Below, piece after piece: positions 3-16,779 of a DNA stretch of 64,000 nt. The DNA is from an uncultured Desulfarculales bacterium. Lineage in GTDB: Bacteria > Desulfobacterota > Desulfarculia > Desulfarculales > JAHJDS01. The first letter of the stretch is position 1; every line of letters begins with the position of its first letter. Under the pieces are notes generated by a model that was not told the origin of the DNA, did no database searches, and saw nothing but the letters and a program-made list of their open reading frames with translations. The position numbers and the translations under genes are program-made. The DNA lies in NCBI GenBank assembly GCA_964569795.1, contig CAZMVB010000005.1, forward strand, positions 107,092 through 171,091, given 5' to 3'.

Positions 3-296
3 CTGGCCGGGCCGATGGCGACCGGTCCGGCCGTTGTCAAGGCGGCGGCCGCGACGGACAATGGCGTCCGGGTTTGCCGGCTTGTCTGCCGGCCCATATG
101 TCACTGGGTCGTAATGCAGCGGCGCTGCCGACCGGGGATGCTCTGCCGCTTCAAGAGCCACGTCTTTTGCCGTTGTTATGTTCGGCCCAGGGGTTGCGCC
201 AAGCGATGCCGGTCAAGGCCCGTTGTCGCGCGCTGTTCCCGGGTGGGCTGGTGCCGGGTCAGGGTCAGGTTCTGCCGGTGCGGGTATCCCCGGTGA
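3..296 (+). CDS. Cys/Arg-rich small protein, 5' end cut by window edge (possible family member CARP-F)
   Basis: The ORF is open to the window start. About 75 aa contain 13 Cys and many Arg. Motifs RVCR.VCR and ICHWV resemble the paralogs at 9995-16779. Third codon positions are GC-rich and a hairpin terminator lies 50 nt downstream. It could still be a spurious high-GC ORF. Confidence 0.4.
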   Translation: MAGPMATGPAVVKAAAATDNGVRVCRLVCRPICHWVVMQRRCRPGMLCRFKSHVFCRCYVRPRGCAKRCRSRPVVARCSRVGWCRVRVRFCRCGYPR

Positions 297-3224: not shown

Positions 3225-3366
3225 AGGTCCAGATTGTGACTCGCCAGTTGATTTATAAAAAGGCGGACGGCGGGCATGACTATAATCGTGATACCGGTAC
3301 GCCTGGGCCATGCTAAAATTTTACTTGGTAAGGCTGACTGAACCTTTCATTTCACGGAGGGATGTG

Positions 3367-3924
3367 ATGAGACGGTTTTCAGTGGCTTTAGGCGTTGTGG
3401 CCGTAGGTTTGTTCATTTGCCTGCCTGCGGCCCGGGCGGCCCTGGACCCCATCCTGGCCGCGATCCGGTCCGGTGATCTGAAAGCGGTGGAGGCCAGGCT
3501 GGCGGCCGCACCGAAGTCGGTCATGGCCAAGGACTTCACCGGCCACACCGCCCTGCACTACGCCGCCAATTCCGGACGCGCCCGGATCGCCGCGCTCCTT
3601 TTGGCCAAGGGGGCCGACCCCAACGCCCTGAACATCGAGGGACGCTCGCCGCTGCATTTGGCGGCCATGCGCTGTTTTCTAGAGGTGGCAAAGGTCCTGA
3701 TCGCCAAGGGGGCCAAGATCAATCTGCGGGGTACGATGTTCGGCTCCACGCCGCTGCACGTGGCCGCCGGGTTCGGGTGTGTGAAGGTGATCGCCCTGCT
3801 CCTGGACAAGGGGGCCAAGACGGACGTGAAGGACAAGCAGGGCCTGACGCCCCTGGGCGTGGCCCAAAAGGACAAGATGAAGGCCGTGGTGGAGCTATTC
3901 AAGAAGCGCGGCGTGACCAGGTAG
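3367..3924 (+). CDS. Secreted ankyrin-repeat protein
   Basis: Signal peptide MRRFSVALGVVAVGLFICLPAARA and SD GGAGGG. Repeated ankyrin cores GHTALHYAA, GRSPLHLAA and GSTPLHVAA. Confidence 0.85.
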   Translation: MRRFSVALGVVAVGLFICLPAARAALDPILAAIRSGDLKAVEARLAAAPKSVMAKDFTGHTALHYAANSGRARIAALLLAKGADPNALNIEGRSPLHLAAMRCFLEVAKVLIAKGAKINLRGTMFGSTPLHVAAGFGCVKVIALLLDKGAKTDVKDKQGLTPLGVAQKDKMKAVVELFKKRGVTR

Positions 3925-4093: not shown

Positions 4094-5365
4094 GTGTTAC
4101 AAGAAGACCAAACTGCTGAACTTCTATTATGGTGCGAACAGGAATTGGGCGTAGAGCTACGCCAAATAAGAGGGAATTTGACAAAAGCATTAACACGGGC
4201 TTCAGCTGTCTGGGAACTATTAGTAATTGAAGAGGCTTCTAGGCTTGGAAAGGTGCAATATGAGCCGGACGCTGAAGGCAGCCCGGATCTATTTATTGAA
4301 TTCCCTAATGGGCGTCCCGTTTGGATCGAAATTAAATATCTGGCTAGGCGTTATGTCAAAGAAGAACAACAGACGCAAGAGGTTGCTAATTGGATATTTA
4401 ATGAGGCCAAGCGGCTTGGCGTACCACCTGAATCGGTCAAGCCGCGTTTCGGTCGTTTTGTTAGTGACAAAGGAAAATCAATTAGGATTTTACCGCAAAT
4501 TAATATGAGGAAGTTTTTCCTAAACGACCCAGAATTGCGCTACTTTTTCCGTAGGATAAAAATGTTTCCACATCACAATTTTTCTTGCGACCTTACTGAT
4601 TATACCATTTCGATTGATTATTGGCCTAAATTTCCATCATCAGGATATACTAGTTGGTCTGAATTACCTCTTGAACAACCAGCAATAGCCAAAGAGAATG
4701 CCATTTATAGGGCCTTGAGAGAAAAGGGTAAACAACACAAAGTCGAGGCTCCCCATGTAATATGCATTGGAAGCGATCAAAGCCCTGCATTAAATAGAAA
4801 AATTTATCAGGGTAATCTTGCTATTGAAAGAGCAATCGAATATGCTTTCAAAGATTATAGCTCCATTTCAGCCGCCATTATTGTCTTCATCGAATCAAAT
4901 ATTGATATTTTTGGCCAGGAAGAAGAGCGGAAGGCAGAGTTGAAAATATTTGAAAATCCAAGTGCAACACACCCACTTGAGGCTTCACAATTACATTTAT
5001 TAACAACAATGAACTTTAATAGACGGAAGTATACATCTACGCTGCCAAATAATGAGACTAACGACTTGGAACGTTTTCTGCGTGTATCAGGGTGCTTAAC
5101 TTGGAGGTCAACGGAAATGAGTGAATTTGTTGAAATCCCTTCTAACACACTGATGAGGATTCTATCAGGGAAAACCAATTTATATGATTCATTTCGTATT
5201 CGACCTGGTGATTTTCGAAGAATACCCTTTGAAAATGGATGGGCCATTCGGAGTGTTTCTATGAAAGAAGGAAATATTGAAAAGGGGGAAGATTCAAAGG
5301 TCGTATTGGAACTCGTTTCACCAATATTTAATCCATACAGGCCGCACAAAAAAAGTAAAGGTTAG
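4094..5365 (+). CDS. Hypothetical protein with a possible PD-(D/E)xK nuclease core, in an AT-rich islet
   Basis: 423 aa ORF that is clearly AT-richer than its flanks. The N-terminal segment SPDLFIEFPNGRPVWIEIKY fits a D...ExK motif. The rest is unrecognised. Confidence 0.65.
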   Translation: MLQEDQTAELLLWCEQELGVELRQIRGNLTKALTRASAVWELLVIEEASRLGKVQYEPDAEGSPDLFIEFPNGRPVWIEIKYLARRYVKEEQQTQEVANWIFNEAKRLGVPPESVKPRFGRFVSDKGKSIRILPQINMRKFFLNDPELRYFFRRIKMFPHHNFSCDLTDYTISIDYWPKFPSSGYTSWSELPLEQPAIAKENAIYRALREKGKQHKVEAPHVICIGSDQSPALNRKIYQGNLAIERAIEYAFKDYSSISAAIIVFIESNIDIFGQEEERKAELKIFENPSATHPLEASQLHLLTTMNFNRRKYTSTLPNNETNDLERFLRVSGCLTWRSTEMSEFVEIPSNTLMRILSGKTNLYDSFRIRPGDFRRIPFENGWAIRSVSMKEGNIEKGEDSKVVLELVSPIFNPYRPHKKSKG

Positions 5366-5462: not shown

Positions 5463-6026
5463 TCAACCCCGGGGCGCCTTCGGCCTGAGGACCACGGCCG
5501 GCCGGGTGCGCTCGGAATACCTGAAATCCAAAGACTCATGAACGGTCCCGTACCTGCCCTCCAGATCCGCCAGGGGACCGGCATCCAGGGCCCGGGTGGG
5601 ACAGGACTCGATGCAGGCCGGGAGTTTTCCTTGGGTCCAGAGGTCCAGGCAGAAGTCGCACTTGCCCATCTTGGCCCCCGGGGTGGGTCCGAACTGCGGG
5701 GCGTCATAGGGGCAGGCCTTGCGGCACTTCTCGTCGCAGGCCTCATTGCCCAGGCAGGCCTCCCGGTCCACGACCACGATCCCGTCCGCCTCGCGCTTGG
5801 AGATGGCCCCCACCGGACAGGCCTCAACGCAGATCGGCTTCAGGCACTGGAAGCAGGGCAGCACCAGGTAGCTGACAAAGACCTCTGGCACCTCTCCTTG
5901 TTCAGTGTAGGCGATCCGCATCCAGTTCTCCGGACCGGCCGGGATGTCATGACAATCCTTGCAGGCGACGCGGCAGGCGCTGCAGCCGGTGCACCGGGTC
6001 TGATCGAAATAGAAACCGACTTGCAT
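5463..6026 (-). CDS. 4x[4Fe-4S] ferredoxin subunit, DmsB/NrfC type
   Basis: Cys clusters CTGCSACRVAC, CFQCLKPICVEACP, CLGNEACDEKCRKACP and CDFC..CIESCP. The ATG at 6026 follows a G-rich SD, 14 nt after the catalytic subunit stop. Confidence 0.85.
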   Translation of the reverse strand: MQVGFYFDQTRCTGCSACRVACKDCHDIPAGPENWMRIAYTEQGEVPEVFVSYLVLPCFQCLKPICVEACPVGAISKREADGIVVVDREACLGNEACDEKCRKACPYDAPQFGPTPGAKMGKCDFCLDLWTQGKLPACIESCPTRALDAGPLADLEGRYGTVHESLDFRYSERTRPAVVLRPKAPRG

Positions 6027-6039
6027 GTCCACCCCCCCC

Positions 6040-8250
6040 TCAGGCCCGGGCCACTTGGACCAGGGCCGTGTTCAGGCAGGCCGCCCCGCCGCCGGAGTAC
6101 TCGTCCTTGGTTAGGGTGTTAGCGCATCCGCCCCGGTCGATCCCTGTCTCGTCCGGATCGTACCAGGCCCCCTCGAAGATGCAGACCACGCCGGGCATGA
6201 TCCGCTGGGTGACCCAGGCAGTGATCGCCACCCGGCCCCGATCGTTGAACACGTGGACCTCGTCGCCGGTCTTGATGCCGCGCGGCCCGGCGTCCATGGG
6301 GTTGATCCAGACCCGATGGGGCTCGACCTCCCGGAGCCACTCGACCTTGTACATCTCCGAGTGGACCCGGTTCCTGGGGTGCGGCGTCAGCAGTTGCAAG
6401 GGGTACTTGGCCGCCAGGGGGTCGTTCCGGTCCTCCCAGGTGGGCATGTACTTGGGGATGGGCGGGCACAGGGGGTTGTCCAGATCGGCCACCCGCTGCG
6501 AAAAGATCTCGATCTTGCCCGACGGCGTGTCAAAGGGGTGGTTGTCCGGATCCTGGATCTGCTTCCTGAAGGCGACGATGGGCTCATCCAGCTTGACCCG
6601 GTGGATCCCCTCGCGCCGGAACTTGTCAAAGTCAATGATCAGCGGCGCGGTCTCCGGGTTCTTGGTCACGAACTGGCGGAGGATGTCGTCCTCGGTAAAG
6701 GGATTGAAATCCTGGATGCCCAGCCGCTCGGCCAGCAGCCCGGCGATCTCCAGGTCGGACTTGCACTCGCCGATGGGCTCGATGGCTCGGTTGACAAAGG
6801 TGAAGTAGGGGCCCGAGGGCCAGGGCCGGGTCAGGTCGTTTCGTTCCATGGCGCTGGTCACGGGCAGCAGCAGGTCCGCGTATCGGGCCTGGGCGGTCAT
6901 GAACAGTTCATTGACCGCCAGGAAGTCGAGCTGTTTGAGGGCCCGGTCGGCCTTGTTGCTGTTGCCGGTCTGGTTGACGTAGTTGTTGCACATGGACCAG
7001 GCCATCTTGATGTCCGCCGGGTAGCCGCCCGCCCGCCCCTTCAAGATGGCGTCGAAGATCTTGTTGATGTGGATCCGCTTGACCACCCGCAGCCGGATGT
7101 CCAGGGTGCCCTTGACCCGCGGGCCGTCCAGCTCGACCGGGTTCTTGCCCGGCGGGATGGCCGACATCCTAAACATGTGGCCGATGGGGATGCCCATCAG
7201 TCCGCCGCCGGCCGAGCCGCCGGGGACGCCGACGTTGCCGGTCATGGCGCACAGGGTCATGGCGCAGCGGTTGTACTGCTCGCCCATGGCCGAGCGGGCC
7301 GGGCCCTGGCAGTCCATCAGGGCGGCCGGTTTGGTGGCGGCGTATTCCCGGGCCAGGGCCTGGATGGTCTCGGCCGGGACCCCGGTGATCGGGGCCGCCC
7401 AGGCCGGCGTCTTGGGCGTGCTGTCTTCGGCGCCCAGGACGTAATCCCGGAATCGGTCGAACCCGACAGTGTATCGGTCCAGGAAGGCCTGGTCGTGCAG
7501 GTCTTCGTCGATCATGACGTGGGCCATGGCCACCATCATCGCCGTGTCGGTCCCGGGGTAGATCGGGATCCACTGGTCGGCCAGCACGGCGGCCGTGTCG
7601 GTGTAGCGCGGCTCGACACAGATCATCCGGGTCCCGGCCTCCTTGGCCCGGATGAGGTGATACATGGTGTTGGTTCCGGAAATCATCCGGGCCGGGTCCC
7701 AGCCCCAGAGGATGGCCAGCTTCGAGTTGAGCAGGTCCTCCCGGCTGTGGCCGACCATGACCGACCCGTACTGGGTCAACGAGGCCCAGACCGCCCCCTC
7801 GGAAGAAATGTTGCCGTAGTGGGTGGTATAGCCGCCGAACTGGTTGAGCAGCCGGGCGGCGGCCAGGCCGCCCATGTGCAGGCTGGCCAGGTAGCCCCCG
7901 CCGGTCAGGAGCAGGATGGCGGCGTTGCCGTGGGTCTCCTTGACCTGTTTGAGCTTGCCGGCCAGGGTGTCCAGGGCCTCGTCCCAGGAAATCCGTTCGA
8001 ACCTGCCCTCCCCCTTGGCCCCGATCCGCTTTTGGGGGTATTTGAGGCGCTCGGGGTGATGCACGTACTGGCGCAGGGCCCGGCACCGGAGGCAGGTCCG
8101 GAGCTGGTCCGGCTCGGCGGCGTCGTCGCCCTCGACTCGAATGATGACGTTGTCCTTGACGTGGAGCCGCAAGGGACAGCGACCCCCGCAGTCAAAGGTG
8201 GAGGTCGTGCGGACGATCTTGACTGCCTGATCCGATCGTCGGCCGGTCAT
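6040..8250 (-). CDS. Molybdopterin oxidoreductase, DMSO reductase (DmsA/YnfE-like) catalytic subunit, no Tat leader
   Basis: Collinear resemblance to E. coli DmsA: FDCGGRCPLRLHV, RLKYPQKRIGAKGEGRFERISWDEA, C-terminal GGCANTLT. The start is set at ATG 8250 with SD AAGGAGG. The track extension to 8484 is R/P/S-rich and overlaps the upstream gene. Confidence 0.9.
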   Translation of the reverse strand: MTGRRSDQAVKIVRTTSTFDCGGRCPLRLHVKDNVIIRVEGDDAAEPDQLRTCLRCRALRQYVHHPERLKYPQKRIGAKGEGRFERISWDEALDTLAGKLKQVKETHGNAAILLLTGGGYLASLHMGGLAAARLLNQFGGYTTHYGNISSEGAVWASLTQYGSVMVGHSREDLLNSKLAILWGWDPARMISGTNTMYHLIRAKEAGTRMICVEPRYTDTAAVLADQWIPIYPGTDTAMMVAMAHVMIDEDLHDQAFLDRYTVGFDRFRDYVLGAEDSTPKTPAWAAPITGVPAETIQALAREYAATKPAALMDCQGPARSAMGEQYNRCAMTLCAMTGNVGVPGGSAGGGLMGIPIGHMFRMSAIPPGKNPVELDGPRVKGTLDIRLRVVKRIHINKIFDAILKGRAGGYPADIKMAWSMCNNYVNQTGNSNKADRALKQLDFLAVNELFMTAQARYADLLLPVTSAMERNDLTRPWPSGPYFTFVNRAIEPIGECKSDLEIAGLLAERLGIQDFNPFTEDDILRQFVTKNPETAPLIIDFDKFRREGIHRVKLDEPIVAFRKQIQDPDNHPFDTPSGKIEIFSQRVADLDNPLCPPIPKYMPTWEDRNDPLAAKYPLQLLTPHPRNRVHSEMYKVEWLREVEPHRVWINPMDAGPRGIKTGDEVHVFNDRGRVAITAWVTQRIMPGVVCIFEGAWYDPDETGIDRGGCANTLTKDEYSGGGAACLNTALVQVARA

Positions 8251-9937: not shown

Positions 9938-9969
9938 CCCAAAAAAGGGCCGGGGCAGAACCCCGGCCC
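9938..9969 (-). terminator. Rho-independent terminator after CARP-A
   Basis: Minus strand reads GGGCCGGGG-TTCTG-CCCCGGCCC followed by TTTTTTGGGTTT, about 25 nt after the stop at 9995. Confidence 0.75.
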
Positions 9970-9994
9970 TCACCGGCCCCCGCGGAGCGAAAGC

Positions 9995-10366
9995 TCAGCC
10001 CCGGATGACGCAGACCACGACAGTGCAGCGCAAATGGTACCGGCAAGCCCGCCTCGTTACCCATTGGCAAATTTTGTGCGTCACCCACTGGCAGATGGAC
10101 TGACATCTTCTGCGGATCATGTTGCCCACCCGGCTGTGCCAGCATTTTTGCAGCGGGTGGCAAATTCGCTGCACCTTGCAGACTTGCCTCGAGACCGGGC
10201 CGCAGGTCTTTACGTAGTTGCATTTCCGGCACGGAACCGTCTTGGCGATTTGGAACGTGACCCGGGACCGGACGGCAACCGCCGGGGTCGCCTTGTTACC
10301 GGCCGCCGCCGGGCCAACCAAAGCGACCAGCAGAACCAGGACTGCCATTGACCAGAGAACCTTCAT
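9995..10366 (-). CDS. Secreted Cys/Arg-rich mini-protein CARP-A (long type, 12 Cys)
   Basis: SD GAGGAGG and signal peptide MKVLWSMAVLVLLVALVGPAAA. The Cys spacing is shared with CARP-B and CARP-E. Internal ICQWVT(H/R)(K/R).C duplication. C-terminal VIRG. Confidence 0.8.
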   Translation of the reverse strand: MKVLWSMAVLVLLVALVGPAAAGNKATPAVAVRSRVTFQIAKTVPCRKCNYVKTCGPVSRQVCKVQRICHPLQKCWHSRVGNMIRRRCQSICQWVTHKICQWVTRRACRYHLRCTVVVCVIRG

Positions 10367-10423
10367 GCTGTTTCCTCCTCGTGACCTTTTCGCCGGACCG
10401 GCCCCCGATCCAACGAGAGTTTT

Positions 10424-10535
10424 TAGGCGTCACCGGGGACACGGTCCCGCGGTGACGACGAAGTTGATTTTCCTGACCGGTCGCCGGGGGGAGTAGAAGC
10501 CGCGTCCTCTTCCCGGGGACCGGTCTGACCGCCTG
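10424..10535 (-). pseudogene. Duplicated 3' end fragment of the 11976-12440 gene
   Basis: About 100 nt are nearly identical to 11968-12075. It encodes GFYSPRRPVRKINFVVTAGPCPR versus GFYSPWQPVRKINFVVTAGPCSR. There is no signal peptide or homologous upstream part. Confidence 0.6.
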
Positions 10536-10645
10536 GTGCGGGCGTTGTCTGTTCGGGCCCATTGGCTGGCCGTATGAGGTTCCACGGTCAGTCGTTTTTC
10601 ACGGCCATCACACTGGGCGATCATTCGAACCTTCGGCGCCCCCGT

Positions 10646-11914
10646 TCACCGGGGCGGGGGAAAGATGATCGGTCCGGACGGGAAGAAGACGTGCTGCAGG
10701 CGTCCCCCGCGGAAAAAGGCGATGATATGTTTCTTCAGATAAAAAAGAGAGTGCACCGTCCCTCTCCGGAACTTTTGGGTAATGACCTTGTCCGGCGAAC
10801 CGAAGATGCGTTCGAACTCGGCCCTGGTCAGGGACCCCGGTCGCTCGAAGTCGATCACCACCCCCGTAACCATGGCCGGTGGCCTGAAGTCGGCCGAACA
10901 AAACCTTATCTTGAATTTTTGGGGGTCGATCTTCAGGCCGGGGAACAGGTAGGGCAGCAGGGGGTCCAGGCCACGATGGCAAGGCTCATTGAAGAGCAGG
11001 CCGATCTCGCCGGGAAAGGTCTTCTTCAAATCCCAGGCGTGACCGTCCGCGATGGAATACGTCATTTGCCGGCGGATGGCCTCGATCAGGAAGTCGTTCT
11101 CCGGCCGCCAGGCCACGCCCTGGGCCTCGGCCGCCCGGCGCAGCTTGGCATAGAGATCCGGCCGCTTGGCCAGACGCCGGACCAGGGACCAGGGCACGAT
11201 CCAGCCGCAGGAGAAACTTTTTTCATCCCGAGGCCGGGGGCCGACCCGACCATGGCTGGGGCCGGAGTGGATGATCACCCGGACGACTTGTCCCTGATTG
11301 ACCCAGCAAATCATGTTGCGCCAGACGTACCACTTGACCTCGGACGGCAGTTTGAGGGCGTTCCCCGGGGGCAGCTTGACGTTCAGGACCAGGTCCGGTT
11401 TGCCCAGGGCGGCGGTGAATTTTTGAAGGCTCGCGTCCGCGGCCAGCGGGGCCGACGGGGTCCCACCCTGGATCATGACCTTGATCACCGTGCCGCCTCT
11501 GACGAATAAATCGGCCTTCAACCGCTTGTAGTCCACGTTTTTGATCTTCAAGAAGTTGAAGAACTGCCCCAGATATTGCCGGGCCCTGGCCGGCCCCATC
11601 TTCCTGGTGTTCAGATGCTTGAATATCGGTCCAAAATAGTGGGCGTAAATGACCAGATCGGCCTCGGTCAGGTTATGCTTTTTCAGGAAGGCCTCGATCT
11701 TGGCCCTGATTTCGACCGGATCGCCGAAGCCCAGGGCCGCGATCTGGTCCAACCTGTCGAAGGGCCGGCCCACGGTCAGGCCGTGGAAGGTGAAGGGCCA
11801 GACCACGTAGCGGAAGCCGCGCGGGTCGGTCACGATCCGACCGGGCTTTGCGTCCGCACGGCCGTACCCGGCCAGAAACACCAGGGCCAGCACGACAACG
11901 ATTGTCCTTTTCAT
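10646..11914 (-). CDS. Secreted hypothetical protein (422 aa)
   Basis: Start set at ATG 11914 with signal peptide MKRTIVVVLALVFLAGYGRADA. No family recognised. The long N-terminal extension in the track was rejected. Confidence 0.75.
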   Translation of the reverse strand: MKRTIVVVLALVFLAGYGRADAKPGRIVTDPRGFRYVVWPFTFHGLTVGRPFDRLDQIAALGFGDPVEIRAKIEAFLKKHNLTEADLVIYAHYFGPIFKHLNTRKMGPARARQYLGQFFNFLKIKNVDYKRLKADLFVRGGTVIKVMIQGGTPSAPLAADASLQKFTAALGKPDLVLNVKLPPGNALKLPSEVKWYVWRNMICWVNQGQVVRVIIHSGPSHGRVGPRPRDEKSFSCGWIVPWSLVRRLAKRPDLYAKLRRAAEAQGVAWRPENDFLIEAIRRQMTYSIADGHAWDLKKTFPGEIGLLFNEPCHRGLDPLLPYLFPGLKIDPQKFKIRFCSADFRPPAMVTGVVIDFERPGSLTRAEFERIFGSPDKVITQKFRRGTVHSLFYLKKHIIAFFRGGRLQHVFFPSGPIIFPPPR

Positions 11915-11975
11915 GAAACTCTCCCCCAGCTGACCATTCAAGGCCGGGCCTTGAACCGGCGAGCCTCTTTCGGCA

Positions 11976-12440
11976 TCACCGGGAACACGGTCCGGCGGTG
12001 ACGACGAAGTTGATTTTCCTGACCGGTTGCCAGGGGGAGTAGAAGCCGCGTCCACTCCCCGGGACCGGCTGACCATTGGCGTCGAACCTGATACCGCCGG
12101 TGAAATAGCGCCGCTGGATCTCCACCACTGCCATACCGGGCCGCAGGGCCTTGATCTCGGCGACATAGGCCATGGAGTGGATGAAGTTTCTCCCTACGGT
12201 TAAACTGTTTCCCCTGGTGACCACGGCCCGGTAAAACGGACCGTTCTGGCTGCCCACGGCACCCAGGCGCAGGTTGAATTTTTGGCCGACCCGCAGGCAC
12301 CGGGACGAGGTCGTCACCTTGACCGCTGGGGGCCTGACCGTTGCGGCCCGGGAGACGCCGCCGGCCGGAAACACACCGCCCAGGCTTCCGGCCAGGCAGA
12401 CCACCATCAAGGCCTTGAAACCACTTTTCCTCAGACACAT
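11976..12440 (-). CDS. Secreted hypothetical protein (154 aa)
   Basis: Start set at ATG 12440 (MCLRKSGFKALMVVCLAGSLG) with an AAGGA SD. Its C-terminal tail is duplicated at 10424-10535. Confidence 0.7.
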   Translation of the reverse strand: MCLRKSGFKALMVVCLAGSLGGVFPAGGVSRAATVRPPAVKVTTSSRCLRVGQKFNLRLGAVGSQNGPFYRAVVTRGNSLTVGRNFIHSMAYVAEIKALRPGMAVVEIQRRYFTGGIRFDANGQPVPGSGRGFYSPWQPVRKINFVVTAGPCSR

Positions 12441-12513: not shown

Positions 12514-12831
12514 TCACCGCTCGACTCGACCGCACCTGTAACACGAACCTTGATCGGTGCTGTAACAGCGACCATTGCAATACCACGCCTTGTCGCTCGG
12601 ACAGCAAGCCCTGTATTTCCAGCAGCAGTCATCGCCTGACGGGCAGCAGAAGCTCCCGCAATTGACCGGATAGTTGGCCGGACACCTCCGTCTGGCCAAT
12701 TGAACGGTTGTTCTCGTTTCCCGTTTGCAGCGCTGAACCGCTGTATGCCCTGCGCCCAGGGCCATGGTCGGCGCCAGGCAAATCGCCAGCAAGAACACCA
12801 CGATCAAGACGCTGATTCCTCCCCTTCTCAT
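12514..12831 (-). CDS. Secreted Cys-rich mini-protein with CC doublets (distinct from the CARP family)
   Basis: SD AAGGAGG 7 nt before ATG 12831 and signal peptide MRRGGISVLIVVFLLAICLAPTMALG. The mature part contains C-x7-C-x3-CC-x5-CC-x5-CC-x7-C-x3-C-x7-C-x2-C. Confidence 0.75.
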   Translation of the reverse strand: MRRGGISVLIVVFLLAICLAPTMALGAGHTAVQRCKRETRTTVQLARRRCPANYPVNCGSFCCPSGDDCCWKYRACCPSDKAWYCNGRCYSTDQGSCYRCGRVER

Positions 12832-13078
12832 GACGTGTCCTCCTTGACCCCCTGTTACTTCCATGGATGTTTCCCGCTCACGCTTCCGCCGGATTGGCTG
12901 GCCGGATTCGCCCTGGTCCGGCCTCTTCAGTTCGATTGGGTTCTCCTGGGTCCATGGCGTATCCTCCGTTTCCTTGGGGAAGCTGGATAAGTTGTCTCCC
13001 CAGTCGTTTTAGTGTTCCCCCGGCCGCGGCCGCGCCCTTGCGGCGGACATCATCGGGCCAGGGTGATCACCCCCGGCC

Positions 13079-13438
13079 TCAGTCTCGCACCGCACATATC
13101 GCCGCGACATGGACCTGCCGGCACCGAATCCGGTTGACCAGGCGGCAGTACTGGCGGGTCAGCCACCGGCAGATCCGGCGGCACTGCTCGACGATGCGGT
13201 TGCCGATCCGCGACCGGGTGCAGACGTGGGTCGGCTGGCAATAGCGCTGGGCTTGGCAGACCCGCATGGGCGCTTTTCGGCAGACCCGCACGGTCTTGTA
13301 ACACGTCTTGGCCAGCCTTTGCGCCGGCCGGGGCGGCGCGGCCGAGGCCGTCAGGGGCACGATCGTCAACCCCATGGCGACCAGGGCGATCAACATCCAG
13401 CCGAAGCAGATACCCAACTTGACACGACTTGAATACAT
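13079..13438 (-). CDS. Secreted Cys/Arg-rich mini-protein CARP-B (long type, 10 Cys)
   Basis: SD AAGGAGGAGG. Leader MYSSRVKLGICFGWMLIALVAMGLTIVPLTASA. By manual count the mature 86 aa hold 18 Arg, 3 Lys and 10 Cys with only 2 acidic residues. Core motifs are shared with A and E. Confidence 0.85.
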   Translation of the reverse strand: MYSSRVKLGICFGWMLIALVAMGLTIVPLTASAAPPRPAQRLAKTCYKTVRVCRKAPMRVCQAQRYCQPTHVCTRSRIGNRIVEQCRRICRWLTRQYCRLVNRIRCRQVHVAAICAVRD

Positions 13439-13509
13439 TTGATCCTCCTCCTTCTTGGGTCACGGACGGTCGATAACCGCGGCCGCCTCGGTGACCCCGA
13501 TCGGATGCC

Positions 13510-13959
13510 CTAGCGCACGAAGGTGTTGGCCACCCGTTTTGATTTCTTGAAGTACAAGATCCACAGCACCGACGCCACCATCCCGATGAAGTATAAGGGC
13601 AGGCCCCCCCGCGGCCCGACCCAAATAAGCAGGACCACCAAAGTAAGCCCGTACAAGATCAAATTCAGTCCCAGGCAGACGACAATGGTCCGAGGTCCCT
13701 TCACCCGGCGTCGATAGAGCGCCCACAAGACAACCAGGCTCAAGGCCAGATCCCAAATATAGCTCGCGAATATGATTACAATCAGGGTCTGGAGGACCCC
13801 ACTAGCCACCGCGACCATGTACGGGACGGCCTCGACGATATCCACCAAGGCAAACAGCACTGTTATGATCGTGTAAAATAATAGCCAACCGCCGAACCCG
13901 GACAACTCGTTTTCCCTGCCACGGCTGCTGGTTTGGGACATGACGATCTGATTATCCAT
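13510..13959 (-). CDS. Small 4-helix membrane protein, DUF2569/YdgK-like (paralog of 456-869)
   Basis: Start set at ATG 13959 (MDNQIVMSQ). The FGGWLLFY motif and the C-terminal YFKKSKRVANTFVR match the 456-869 protein. Confidence 0.8.
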   Translation of the reverse strand: MDNQIVMSQTSSRGRENELSGFGGWLLFYTIITVLFALVDIVEAVPYMVAVASGVLQTLIVIIFASYIWDLALSLVVLWALYRRRVKGPRTIVVCLGLNLILYGLTLVVLLIWVGPRGGLPLYFIGMVASVLWILYFKKSKRVANTFVR

Positions 13960-14077
13960 GGTTGCTCCCTTTGACAGGTTCACCGGACCGCCTGGGTAAA
14001 AACGGGAATACGTTTGTGGCGCCCTCTCGAGAGGCCGTCCGGGCCGCCCCGGCCACCTCTCTGGGCGGGATCGAGCC

Positions 14078-14371
14078 TCAACCTCGGATGGCGTTGCAGG
14101 AGGTCTCGCAACGCGTCTCCCTACGGTAAAAACGCCGCCGAACCCACCGGCAGACATGAGTTCCATTCAACCACTGGCACACCTTTTGAAGCACGGTGTG
14201 GGGCACCCGAACCGTTCTGCACACTCGATGGCACACCCTCTTGGCCAGCATCGTCCCCCCGTTGTTCCTCGCCGCCGAGGCCACCAGGGGCACGAACATC
14301 AGCCCCAGGGCGATCAGGGCGATCAAGACCCAGCCCATGCCGGCTCCCCACTTGACAGACTTGCCAGACAT
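14078..14371 (-). CDS. Secreted Cys/Arg-rich mini-protein CARP-C (short type, 6 Cys)
   Basis: Start at the second ATG (MSGKSVKWG), preceded by GGGAGGGG. The leader is nearly identical to B and D. Cys pattern C-x3-C-x13-C-x8-C-x13-C-x3-C. C-terminal AIRG. Confidence 0.8.
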   Translation of the reverse strand: MSGKSVKWGAGMGWVLIALIALGLMFVPLVASAARNNGGTMLAKRVCHRVCRTVRVPHTVLQKVCQWLNGTHVCRWVRRRFYRRETRCETSCNAIRG

Positions 14372-14489
14372 TTTCCCCTCCCACATCTTCGGTCATCGAA
14401 CTCGGTCATGACGGGCGCGGCCGGGCCGCCCCGGCCGCATCGCGTTGTCCACCCAGGCATCCGCCGCCTTTCAGAGGCGAGGTACGGCC

Positions 14490-14831
14490 TCAACCTCGGA
14501 CGGCAAGGGCGCAGGTTACATGGCACCTTCTCTCAATCCGGTACTCAACTATGGCCCTCAAGTGGCATAGTTGGCGTTTATACCAATCGCACACCCTTTG
14601 GAAAACGGTATGGGGCACCCGAACCCTCCGGCACACTGTATGGCACACTCGTTCGTAATGCCGTTTGGCCAGCATCGTCACACCGGTGTTCGCCGCCACC
14701 GCGTGGATCCCGGGATGATCGGGGACACCTTTCGCCGAGGCTGCCAAGGGCACGAACATCAGCCCCATGGCCACCAGGGCGATCAAGATCCAGCCGAAGC
14801 CGTTTCCCCACTTGACACGCTTGTCAGACAT
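14490..14831 (-). CDS. Secreted Cys/Arg-rich mini-protein CARP-D (short type, 6 Cys)
   Basis: Leader MSDKRVKWGNGFGWILIALVAMGLMFVPLAASA. Cys pattern C-x3-C-x13-C-x7-C-x13-C-x3-C. C-terminal AVRG. Tandem paralog of CARP-C. Confidence 0.8.
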   Translation of the reverse strand: MSDKRVKWGNGFGWILIALVAMGLMFVPLAASAKGVPDHPGIHAVAANTGVTMLAKRHYERVCHTVCRRVRVPHTVFQRVCDWYKRQLCHLRAIVEYRIERRCHVTCALAVRG

Positions 14832-14925
14832 TTTCTACTCCCATGTCTTCAATTAAAGAGCTTGGTTAAATAAGACCTCCCTCAGGGGCGGGTTGGCCGA
14901 TGTTAATGATCCGGACCTGAACCTC

Positions 14926-16170
14926 TCACCCCGCCGGGTTGACCACCCGTCCCATGAACAGGATCGTTCCGGTCCGGGTGTCCATCACCACGAACAGGAA
15001 GGGATGATCGGCCCGGAACACCGGCGGGCCGGACGGCGATCTCGTGGCGATGACCACGGCCGTGGCCGCGGCGGCCACGGTCCCGGCCTCGTTGACCTCG
15101 ATGAAGGCCTTGTGAAACACGCCGCTGATGTGCAAGTTCTTCTTTCTCCCGTCCATGCGAGAGAAATCGGCCTTGTCACCCTTGAAGGCGTCCTTGATCC
15201 CCAGGGCCTTGAGCGATTTTTTGAGGCTGATGGTCGGCGTGGTGACCTTGAACCGGGGCAGTGAGACCTGGACCACCCTCCCGGGGCGCACTGACGACAG
15301 CCACTTTTTCAGGTTGGCCGGGGTGAGGGCCCGTTCCAGGCCGGCCAGGCCGCCGGCCCGCTTGGGCAGCAGCACGAACATGGACAGGGACCGGTCGGCG
15401 TAAGGCATCTCCAGGACCTTGAGGGAGCCCAGATCGGCGTAACCGAACGGCTTGATGCCCCGACCGTTGGTCTGGGACATCATCTTGACCCGGACCTTTT
15501 TGTGGGGAGCGATGAAAAAGTCGGCCTCATGGGTCTTGGCCTTGTCGAACTTGAGCCGCCAGGTGCCCTTGAAGTACACGGCGTTGGTCAGCACCAGCGT
15601 GGTCAGGTTGGTGATCGACCCCGGTGGCAACAGGTCCTTGACCCTGTCCCGGGTCTTCTTGGCCGCCCAGGCGTTTATATTGCGACGCGAGGCCTCGGGC
15701 TGTGCTGCATAGTTCTGGGGAAACAGGGCGTTGCCATAGTTAACCTTGATCCTCTGCAAAAAGGATTTGAGAAAGGGATAGCCCTTCTGGGGAAACAGGG
15801 CGTTGGCGGTCAGCAGCACGGCGCCATTCCGGCCGGAGCGTTCCAGGCGCCGGATCAACCGGCCCAGGCGGAGGTGCCACGCGGCCTCGGGGCCCCTCAG
15901 GCCCAGGGCCGCGGCCATTTGACGCTGCGTCTCGTGGGCCGCCCCGGCCAGGGTCATGGACAGGGCCACGGTGATGCTGTAGGGCGAAAACACGATGTTG
16001 GCCGGGCCTTTGCGGAAGTCCTTGAGCCTGGTCAACTGGCCGTAGAGTTTGAGGGCAAAGGCGGTGTCCTTGCCGACCATGCGGCGCGGGATCGGGGCCA
16101 CGGCCGCGGCCGTGGACAGACCCAGGGTCAGGCTCACCAGGACAACGATCAGCAGTCGAACCGGTCTCAT
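14926..16170 (-). CDS. Secreted serpin (serine protease inhibitor), inhibitory-type hinge, predicted P1 Arg
   Basis: Signal peptide MRPVRLLIVVLVSLTLGLSTAAA. Serpin body and C-terminus FRADHPFLFVVMDTRTGTILFMGRVVNP. Reactive-centre loop EAGTVAAAATAVVIATR-S. Confidence 0.9.
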   Translation of the reverse strand: MRPVRLLIVVLVSLTLGLSTAAAVAPIPRRMVGKDTAFALKLYGQLTRLKDFRKGPANIVFSPYSITVALSMTLAGAAHETQRQMAAALGLRGPEAAWHLRLGRLIRRLERSGRNGAVLLTANALFPQKGYPFLKSFLQRIKVNYGNALFPQNYAAQPEASRRNINAWAAKKTRDRVKDLLPPGSITNLTTLVLTNAVYFKGTWRLKFDKAKTHEADFFIAPHKKVRVKMMSQTNGRGIKPFGYADLGSLKVLEMPYADRSLSMFVLLPKRAGGLAGLERALTPANLKKWLSSVRPGRVVQVSLPRFKVTTPTISLKKSLKALGIKDAFKGDKADFSRMDGRKKNLHISGVFHKAFIEVNEAGTVAAAATAVVIATRSPSGPPVFRADHPFLFVVMDTRTGTILFMGRVVNPAG

Positions 16171-16329
16171 GATTTCCCCCTGAAAAGAAGTTCCGGCCAT
16201 CGGCCCCAATGCCCTTTTGGCATCAGGATGAAATGGTTAGACCGAATCCGTGCCGTTCCGGTTCCCCTTTTTTTCCACCGGGCCGGATGAATGCGCTCGA
16301 TAATGAATGCCCCCCTGCCCCTGATGGCC

Positions 16330-16359
16330 AATAAAAAAGGCCGGGGGATTCCCCCGGCC
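16330..16359 (-). terminator. Rho-independent terminator after CARP-E
   Basis: Minus strand reads GGCCGGGGG-AAT-CCCCCGGCC followed by TTTTTTATT, about 30 nt after the stop at 16390. Confidence 0.8.
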
Positions 16360-16389
16360 CTGATCGGCGCTGCTCCAGTCGGTCGATAA

Positions 16390-16779
16390 TCAGCCCCGCA
16401 CGGCGACGCAGACCGTCTGGCACCTGGGCTGCAGTCGGCACTGCAGGCGGTAGATGAACCGGCAGATTCGCCGGGTGAGCCACTGGCAAACAGACTGGCA
16501 GCGTTGGACGATCTGATTGCCCACCCGGGACCTGGTGCACAGGCGCCGGGGCTGGCAGTAGCGCTGAAGCTGGCAGACCCGACTGGGGACCCGGCGGCAG
16601 ACCCTGACGTTGGTGCACCGCCGGAAGCATTTCCTCTTCTGCTGGGCCAGCCGCGCCGGCTCCACCCTGGCCCGGACTGAACCAGTCTCGGCCGGGTCCA
16701 TTCGCCCCTGGGCCATTGCCCCGGGACTGACCACCATGGCAGCCAGCATCAGGACCATCACCATGTAACTGACCTTCAT
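16390..16779 (-). CDS. Secreted Cys/Arg-rich mini-protein CARP-E (long type, 12 Cys)
   Basis: Signal peptide MKVSYMVMVLMLAAMVVSPGAMA. Same Cys spacing and QRYCQP / TRSRVGN / CQWLTR motifs as CARP-B. C-terminal AVRG. It has its own terminator. Confidence 0.85.
   Translation of the reverse strand: MKVSYMVMVLMLAAMVVSPGAMAQGRMDPAETGSVRARVEPARLAQQKRKCFRRCTNVRVCRRVPSRVCQLQRYCQPRRLCTRSRVGNQIVQRCQSVCQWLTRRICRFIYRLQCRLQPRCQTVCVAVRG

Follow-up and report, generated by a model that had tools for sequence, protein, structure and literature searches.

The DUF2569/YdgK family (PF10754) is widespread in bacteria and archaea and uncharacterized. The only functional hints are that ydgK appears in an overexpression screen for HOCl resistance and is induced by NaClO in Salmonella (PMC8228696, PMC9065344). 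Membrane immunity to exported toxins is better described. The immunity gene of an ionophoric colicin has a separate promoter and is encoded on the opposite strand (PMC9517006). Typical class II bacteriocin immunity proteins have 50–150 amino acids, and BfnI, a 396-residue DltB paralog, was shown experimentally to confer immunity to the cationic bacteriocin bactofencin A (PMC3809560). Here we describe a DUF2569 gene, DUF2569a, at positions 13510–13959 of a 64,000-nucleotide (nt) stretch of DNA from an uncultured Desulfarculales bacterium (contig CAZMVB010000005.1, positions 107,092–171,091; the whole stretch is called the window). DUF2569a lies between genes for exported Cys/Arg-rich proteins (CARPs) of one family, CARP1, and its paralog DUF2569b adjoins a gene of a second family, CARP2. 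We tentatively favor a lineage-specific functional coupling between the DUF2569 copies and the CARPs, with self-protection of the inner membrane as the preferred mechanism, and put its probability at about 0.45. DUF2569a itself is a further member of a known family in an unusual neighborhood. The features where DUF2569 and CARP genes meet are as follows.

13510–13959 (−): DUF2569a, a 149-amino acid inner-membrane protein of the DUF2569/YdgK family with four transmembrane (TM) helices, called from its PF10754 score, AlphaFold2 (AF2) model, and Shine-Dalgarno (SD) sequence.
14078–14386 (−): CARP-C, CARP1 family, short 6-Cys form, a tandem duplicate of CARP-D (repeat families D1, D3, D5, and D8).
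13079–13438 (−): CARP-B, CARP1 family, an exported protein of 119 amino acids; the mature part has 10 Cys, net charge +19, and isoelectric point (pI) 11.2.
456–869 (−): DUF2569b, a 137-amino acid paralog (PF10754, 39.7 bits) in its own transcription unit, with orthologues P0004, P0005, and P0006.
3–296 (+): CARP2 gene (hidden Markov model [HMM] E = 1.9e-41), 5′-truncated by the window edge, with the signal peptide outside the window.
347–372 (no single strand): bidirectional hairpin terminator between the convergent CARP2 and DUF2569b genes, 11-bp stem with A-run and T-run flanks.
921–948 (−): sigma-70-like promoter 5′ of DUF2569b, TTGAGT, 16-nt spacer, TG-TATAAT.

The DUF2569a reading frame starts at an ATG at position 13959, with the SD sequence AAGGGAG at 13965–13971, five bases 5′ of the ATG, and the gene call in a public collection (P0001) gives the same 149 amino acids. 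A 218-amino acid reading from 14166 was dropped; it overlaps CARP-C and conflicts with the database gene call. Against PF10754 (gathering threshold 26.5) the protein reaches 39.4 bits, and both DUF2569 proteins of the window span model positions 2–143 of 143. The AF2 model, computed from a 39-sequence alignment, has a predicted local distance difference test (pLDDT) score of 87 and a predicted template modeling score of 0.77. It contains helices at residues 24–50, 55–83, 88–113, and 120–139 and a short C-terminal amphipathic helix at 141–148, and the four TM helices agree with hydropathy and the positive-inside rule. That rule predicts an N-in/C-in topology with the N terminus, the 2–3 loop, and the C terminus in the cytoplasm; the 2–3 loop region (YRRRVKGPRT) and the C-terminal tail carry five Lys/Arg residues each. 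Foldseek comparison of the model to the PDB returned generic helical bundles only (all E > 0.2), and searching the PDB by sequence gave either no hit or none of significance. When DUF2569a and CARP-B served as queries in a word-indexed search of 5.8 billion proteins, each recovered only itself. DUF2569a has no NCBIfam, PADLOC, or PHROGs match, and in Pfam it matches DUF2569 alone. The open reading frame (ORF) at 13510–13959 (−) is a genuine gene, and its product is a DUF2569/YdgK protein of the inner membrane with four TM helices.

The DUF2569 HMM finds two copies in the window, DUF2569a and DUF2569b, and no third. They share 31% identity (E = 2e-10) and the motifs ELxGxGGWLL and YFxKSxRVxNTFV. 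The initial annotation of this DNA had taken the GGWLL and YF.KS.RV.NTFV motifs as a link between the two paralogs. The motifs are real, but they are a family-wide hallmark that includes E. coli YdgK and are not particular to this pair; G24, W25, L26, Y136, S140, R142, V143, N145, T146, and F147 are invariant in the 39-sequence alignment. The best relative of DUF2569a is P0008 (65 bits); the b-type copies score 42 bits. DUF2569a and DUF2569b are as far from each other as each is from homologues in other phyla, a distance at which the duplication is to be read as old rather than recent. Because they are not recent duplicates, the two CARP adjacencies are either ancient or independent. Some DUF2569 homologues (P0020, P0022, and P0040; L009:4832–5716) carry an extra N-terminal GYF_2 (PF14237) or double zinc ribbon (PF12773) domain, an arrangement that agrees with a cytoplasmic DUF2569 N terminus, and in P0007 the C-terminal DUF2569 motif is duplicated. 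In E. coli K-12, 76 nt separate ydgK (L173:5251–5691) from the downstream gene rsxA, with which the gene set of the SoxR-reducing system (rsxABCDGE) begins.

DUF2569a is on the same strand as its CARP1 neighbors, 118 nt from CARP-C upstream and 71 nt from CARP-B downstream. The remaining features of this minus-strand array and its surroundings are as follows.

16390–16779 (−): CARP-E, CARP1 family, 12 Cys, net charge +23, with its own terminator.
16337–16361 (−): intrinsic terminator after CARP-E, a canonical hairpin.
14926–16209 (−): serpin (PF00079, E = 1.6e-110), full-length with a signal-like N terminus, inside the CARP1 island.
14490–14831 (−): CARP-D, CARP1 family, short 6-Cys form.
12514–12864 (−): Cys-rich exported orphan of a third type, directly 3′ of CARP-B, with 13 Cys in the mature part, several CC doublets, and pI 9.
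11976–12437 (−): orphan exported protein of about 153 amino acids, whose gene has its 3′ end duplicated at 10398–10517.
10646–11914 (−): orphan exported protein of about 422 amino acids.
9995–10366 (−): CARP-A, CARP1 family, 12 Cys, net charge +21, the last gene of the array and followed by a canonical terminator.
9945–9971 (−): intrinsic terminator closing the array, 12-bp stem with 9 GC pairs, T-run, fold z-score −2.85.

From 16209 to 9995 the order is serpin, CARP-D, CARP-C, DUF2569a, CARP-B, the 12514–12864 orphan, the two exported orphans, and CARP-A. Apart from DUF2569a, the array encodes exported proteins throughout (four of the five CARP1 paralogs, the serpin, and three orphans), and CARP-E lies just upstream. 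Canonical terminators are found only at 9971–9945 and 16361–16337. The intergenic hairpins inside the array have no U-tails and fold no more stably than shuffled sequence, and it is plausible from this arrangement that DUF2569a is cotranscribed with the flanking CARP genes. Repeat families define a conserved CARP unit that starts about 35 nt 5′ of each start codon. Because of this unit boundary, and because CARP-C and CARP-D are tandem duplicates, DUF2569a is a discrete cassette between complete CARP units.

All five CARP1 genes of the window are on the minus strand, and their products have AXA-type signal segments at the N terminus. The mature parts are 64–106 amino acids long, with 6–12 Cys, net charges of +10 to +23, and pI values of 10.1–11.5. 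CARP-B has a signal-like N terminus ending ASA/A and a strong SD sequence, GAAGGAGGAGG. The CARP1 proteins have no match in Pfam, NCBIfam, the PDB, PADLOC, or PHROGs, and the AF2 model is poor (pLDDT 51.5). A CARP1 profile search of 1.84 billion representative proteins gave five clusters, of which four came from the window. The fifth, P0052 (L174:647–1024), is the only foreign CARP1; it is on a 1.2-kb contig of JGI sample 3300057049, the same sample as L002. The CARP-C/CARP-D tandem duplication has a 412–460-nt period and lies within 13340–14866. The 3′ end of the 11976–12437 gene recurs upstream of CARP-A as a 120-nt duplicate with 86% identity (10398–10517 versus 11944–12063), together with a gene fragment at 10430–10624. 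The reactive-center loop of the serpin, ...TAVVIATR/SPSG, presumably has Arg at P1 by antithrombin numbering, which would make the protein an inhibitor of trypsin-like proteases. Such a serpin could shield Arg-rich exported proteins from these proteases.

At the second locus, ORF 3–296 (+) and DUF2569b are tail-to-tail, and the terminator at 347–372 lies in the 159-nt gap between them. The promoter-like site 5′ of DUF2569b agrees with the consensus at 10 of 12 positions, has the TG of an extended −10 element, and is a consensus match only. These features bear out the core of the initial annotation, which had placed a DUF2569-like four-helix membrane protein between CARP-B and CARP-C on the same strand and its only window paralog at 456–869, convergent with ORF 3–296. 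That annotation had also called ORF 3–296 CARP-like. The ORF is Cys/Arg-rich, is 65% identical to a full-length, signal peptide–bearing orthologue (L002:6699–7079), and keeps all 10 invariant Cys, and this conservation marks it as a genuine coding gene. It belongs to a second Cys/Arg-rich family, CARP2, but homology between CARP1 and CARP2 was not detected by hhalign (probability 5%). Likeness between the families is limited to a QRxCxPxxxC-like motif and an arrangement in two six-Cys modules. The CARP2 set comprises seven sequences from four lineages with 10 invariant Cys. Full-length copies with signal peptides are found in L002 (three in tandem, 5870–7079), L007 (at least two, 1218–2008), and L006 (one, 10093–10461). 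CARP2 consists of two tandem six-Cys modules, C-x3-C-x8-C-x5-C-x6/7-C-x-C, and a Pro-rich tail. CARP1 also appears as two six-Cys modules beginning C-x3-C. This layout may indicate disulfide-stapled helical hairpins.

The DUF2569 profile search recovered 48 proteins, and the three nearest to DUF2569b with usable flanks were P0004, P0005, and P0006. Each is encoded at one syntenic locus with convergent CARP2 genes (L002–L005, L006, and L007, three further lineages). The b locus varies among them: CARP2 is present in one to three copies, in L006 the pair is split by an inserted acetyltransferase gene, and the ABC_sub_bind gene and a gene for a 104-amino acid protein come and go. The DUF2569b–CARP2 pairing has outlasted these local rearrangements. 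The initial annotation had counted two independent adjacencies. Both are real, and the b-type one is kept in three further lineages, but the conserved cases represent a single syntenic locus and are not independent of one another. The b-type conservation is synteny among relatives at roughly the genus or family level rather than independent recurrence, and it counts as moderate evidence.

The argument for a functional link is that each of two divergent DUF2569 subfamilies adjoins its own family of polycationic, Cys-rich exported proteins, and that DUF2569a sits on the same strand between two genes for such proteins. Of roughly 55 intergenic slots in the window, about 9 border a CARP gene. By this rough count, the chance of both DUF2569 genes lying beside a CARP gene is a few percent in the window and much lower across the genome. 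In the reading that we favor, DUF2569 copies of this clade would have been recruited as membrane-side partners of polycationic, disulfide-rich exported proteins. Their likeliest role would be an immunity-like one, shielding the cytoplasmic membrane of the producer from its own CARPs. The proteins would act within or at the bilayer and not through a periplasmic binding domain, and the coupling would be specific to the lineage rather than a general DUF2569 function. A more elaborate and rather unlikely version would make DUF2569a and DUF2569b the cognate immunity proteins for two undescribed Sec-exported, disulfide-stapled, hypercationic families that hit competitor membranes, with the P1-Arg serpin shielding the CARPs from trypsin-like proteases.

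If the immunity reading is true, it would give a first functional handle on DUF2569/YdgK, namely protection of the cytoplasmic membrane against polycations, and a reproducible pairing of this widespread family with polycations would be a clue to such a role. CARP1 and CARP2 are two orphan signal-peptide families with 6–13 Cys and charges of +10 to +23, they have almost no relatives among 1.84 billion representatives, and the CARP1 genes lie in a tandemly duplicating island with a serpin. Should the CARPs be antimicrobial, they would define a new class of bacteriocin-like proteins, and their DUF2569 partners a novel type of immunity protein; otherwise, DUF2569a is an ordinary DUF2569 gene in unusual surroundings.

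A distant set of 160 DUF2569 loci was assembled from 80 GTDB-genome loci (Paenibacillus, Providencia, DPANN archaea, Patescibacteria, and others) and 80 JGI metagenome loci. The initial annotation had implied that CARP-like genes would be enriched beside DUF2569 genes in other genomes. They are present inside the clade, but the CARP1 and CARP2 HMMs matched 0 of the 160 distant loci, even at E ≤ 10, and none of the 160 had a credible Cys-rich exported neighbor. Small exported cationic genes made up 6 of 297 immediate neighbors versus 12 of 2029 in the background, which is no meaningful enrichment, and none of the six was convincing. Clustering of the genes around the 160 loci gave no universal neighbor and only lineage-specific synteny (Paenibacillus, Providencia). 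The intermediate relatives P0009, P0013, and P0024, which have readable flanks, lack a CARP gene in their context, and P0008, the closest relative of DUF2569a, lacks one within about 400 nt on each side. The foreign CARP1 gene (L174) adjoins a DUF2330-like gene, and there is no DUF2569 gene in its 1.2 kb. Scans centered on CARP2 turned up no relatives in GTDB genomes or JGI metagenomes, and the alignment of the seven CARP2 sequences is too diverse for scanning by pattern. Co-occurrence thus amounts to four related lineages at one syntenic locus, with no case among the distant loci and empty CARP-centered scans. The DUF2569–CARP link was seen in a single narrow group of uncultured bacteria and not outside that clade.

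These results weigh against the coupling, and further observations fall on the same side. The b-locus relatives are close, with neighboring proteins 76–91% identical and DUF2569b 55–85%. Every CARP2 locus was found via DUF2569, so the CARP2 set is not an independent sample for the frequency of DUF2569 given CARP2. The two loci of the window are 13 kb apart, and the within-window chance estimate is a few percent, not 1e-5. CARP-A and CARP-E do not adjoin DUF2569a. The 4- and 6-residue periplasmic loops of DUF2569a are unfavorable to direct binding, and the invariant motifs of the family are placed at the cytoplasmic face. DUF2569b is not cotranscribed with CARP2 but forms a separate, convergent unit that has a promoter-like site and a terminator. 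The library scans revealed no dedicated exporter, no lysis gene, and no known immunity family. The ABC transporters at 22.7–26.6 kb have no C39 domain and are more than 6 kb away. PADLOC HMMs of known anti-phage defense proteins matched none of the 10 island proteins. In a separate comparison for a large secreted protein common to both loci, the 422- and 409-amino acid proteins proved unrelated.

The alternative that survives best holds that there is no specific coupling. DUF2569 would have a general YdgK-like function, adjacency would result from descent together with the gathering of small accessory genes in a variable 17-kb stretch, and the b locus would be plain synteny. This is nearly as likely as the coupling that we favor, at somewhat under even odds. 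It accommodates the absence of the association from the distant loci, whose conserved neighbors reflect only lineage-specific synteny, as well as the cytoplasm-facing motifs, the independent convergent unit of DUF2569b, and the closeness of the b-locus carriers. P0008 and L174 each show one partner alone, in short visible stretches, and E. coli ydgK, beside rsxA, has no Cys-rich peptide genes next to it. Less easily explained this way are the abutment of two DUF2569 subfamilies to two different Cys/Arg-rich exported families in one genome, the clean placement of DUF2569a between same-strand CARP units with a terminator on neither side, and the persistence of the b pairing through several local rearrangements.

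A second alternative accepts the coupling but not the immunity. DUF2569 would aid export, folding, anchoring, or sensing of the CARPs, for example by holding them on the outer surface of the inner membrane or by signaling their presence to the cytoplasm. The adjacency evidence serves this explanation as well as it serves self-protection, and the cytoplasm-facing motifs together with the N-terminal double zinc ribbon or GYF_2 fusions of some homologues suggest a cytoplasmic partner. The CARPs, however, carry ordinary Sec/signal peptidase I signal peptides, for which no special exporter is required. DUF2569a has only tiny periplasmic loops, and a single copy of it would need to serve all five CARP1 proteins, which are divergent. 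The island contains no regulator, Dsb, or transporter gene. We regard this explanation as improbable. The last alternative, that DUF2569a or the CARP ORFs are noncoding artefacts of high GC content in a window of 60–68% GC with many spurious overlapping ORFs, is refuted by the Pfam score above the gathering threshold, the confident AF2 model, the SD sequence, and the conserved Cys frameworks, signal peptides, and homologues of the CARPs in other organisms.

Some other features of the window were also noted. An ankyrin-repeat protein is encoded at 3310–3924 (+) beside an FMN-reductase gene near the DUF2569b locus, and this arrangement is conserved (L002:3299–3862). The L002 orthologue has a signal-like N terminus, which is unusual for a bacterial ankyrin protein. 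An orphan ORF of 423 amino acids with no Pfam match is at 4094–5365 (+) in a low-GC stretch (0.38–0.41 versus 0.60–0.69 around it) that may be recently acquired DNA. The window contains no rRNA, tRNA, or Rfam matches.

Among described proteins, the nearest to DUF2569a by family is E. coli YdgK, which shares a length of about 140–150 amino acids, four TM helices, (I/F)GGWLL at the N terminus, and YFxKSxRVxxTFV at the C terminus. The window proteins are only about 25–33% identical to other family members, and their CARP neighborhood is clade-specific. The initial annotation had likened the locus to a classic bacteriocin-immunity layout, and this comparison was not supported beyond adjacency: no other hallmark was found, and there is no dedicated exporter, C39 peptidase, known immunity family, or PADLOC/PHROGs match. 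The immunity, receptor, and export roles that it proposed remain hypotheses. The adjacency itself is to genes for exported, polycationic, Cys-rich proteins that may or may not be antimicrobial. Like the class II immunity proteins, whose genes are cotranscribed 3′ of the structural gene, DUF2569a falls in the expected size range and lies on the same strand immediately 3′ of a small exported-protein gene, CARP-C. In contrast to that class, the CARPs lack both a double-glycine leader and a dedicated transporter, and DUF2569 is not a known immunity family and occurs in hundreds of genomes without CARPs. The pore-forming colicin systems likewise place a small polytopic inner-membrane protein beside the gene of an exported membrane-active protein, a layout that DUF2569b and CARP2 resemble. 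They have no sequence or family kinship with DUF2569, the CARPs are Sec-exported Cys-rich proteins of 60–105 amino acids and not colicins, and no lysis gene is present here. BfnI belongs to another family and is much larger, and the bactofencin cluster has an ABC/C39 exporter and an accessory protein, both absent here, in a Gram-positive host. The colicin and bactofencin parallels are best taken as analogies of mechanism, not as membership. BfnI, a paralog of a widespread general membrane protein, has its gene next to that of a highly cationic exported peptide with a disulfide and confers specific immunity, and we propose recruitment of this kind for DUF2569.

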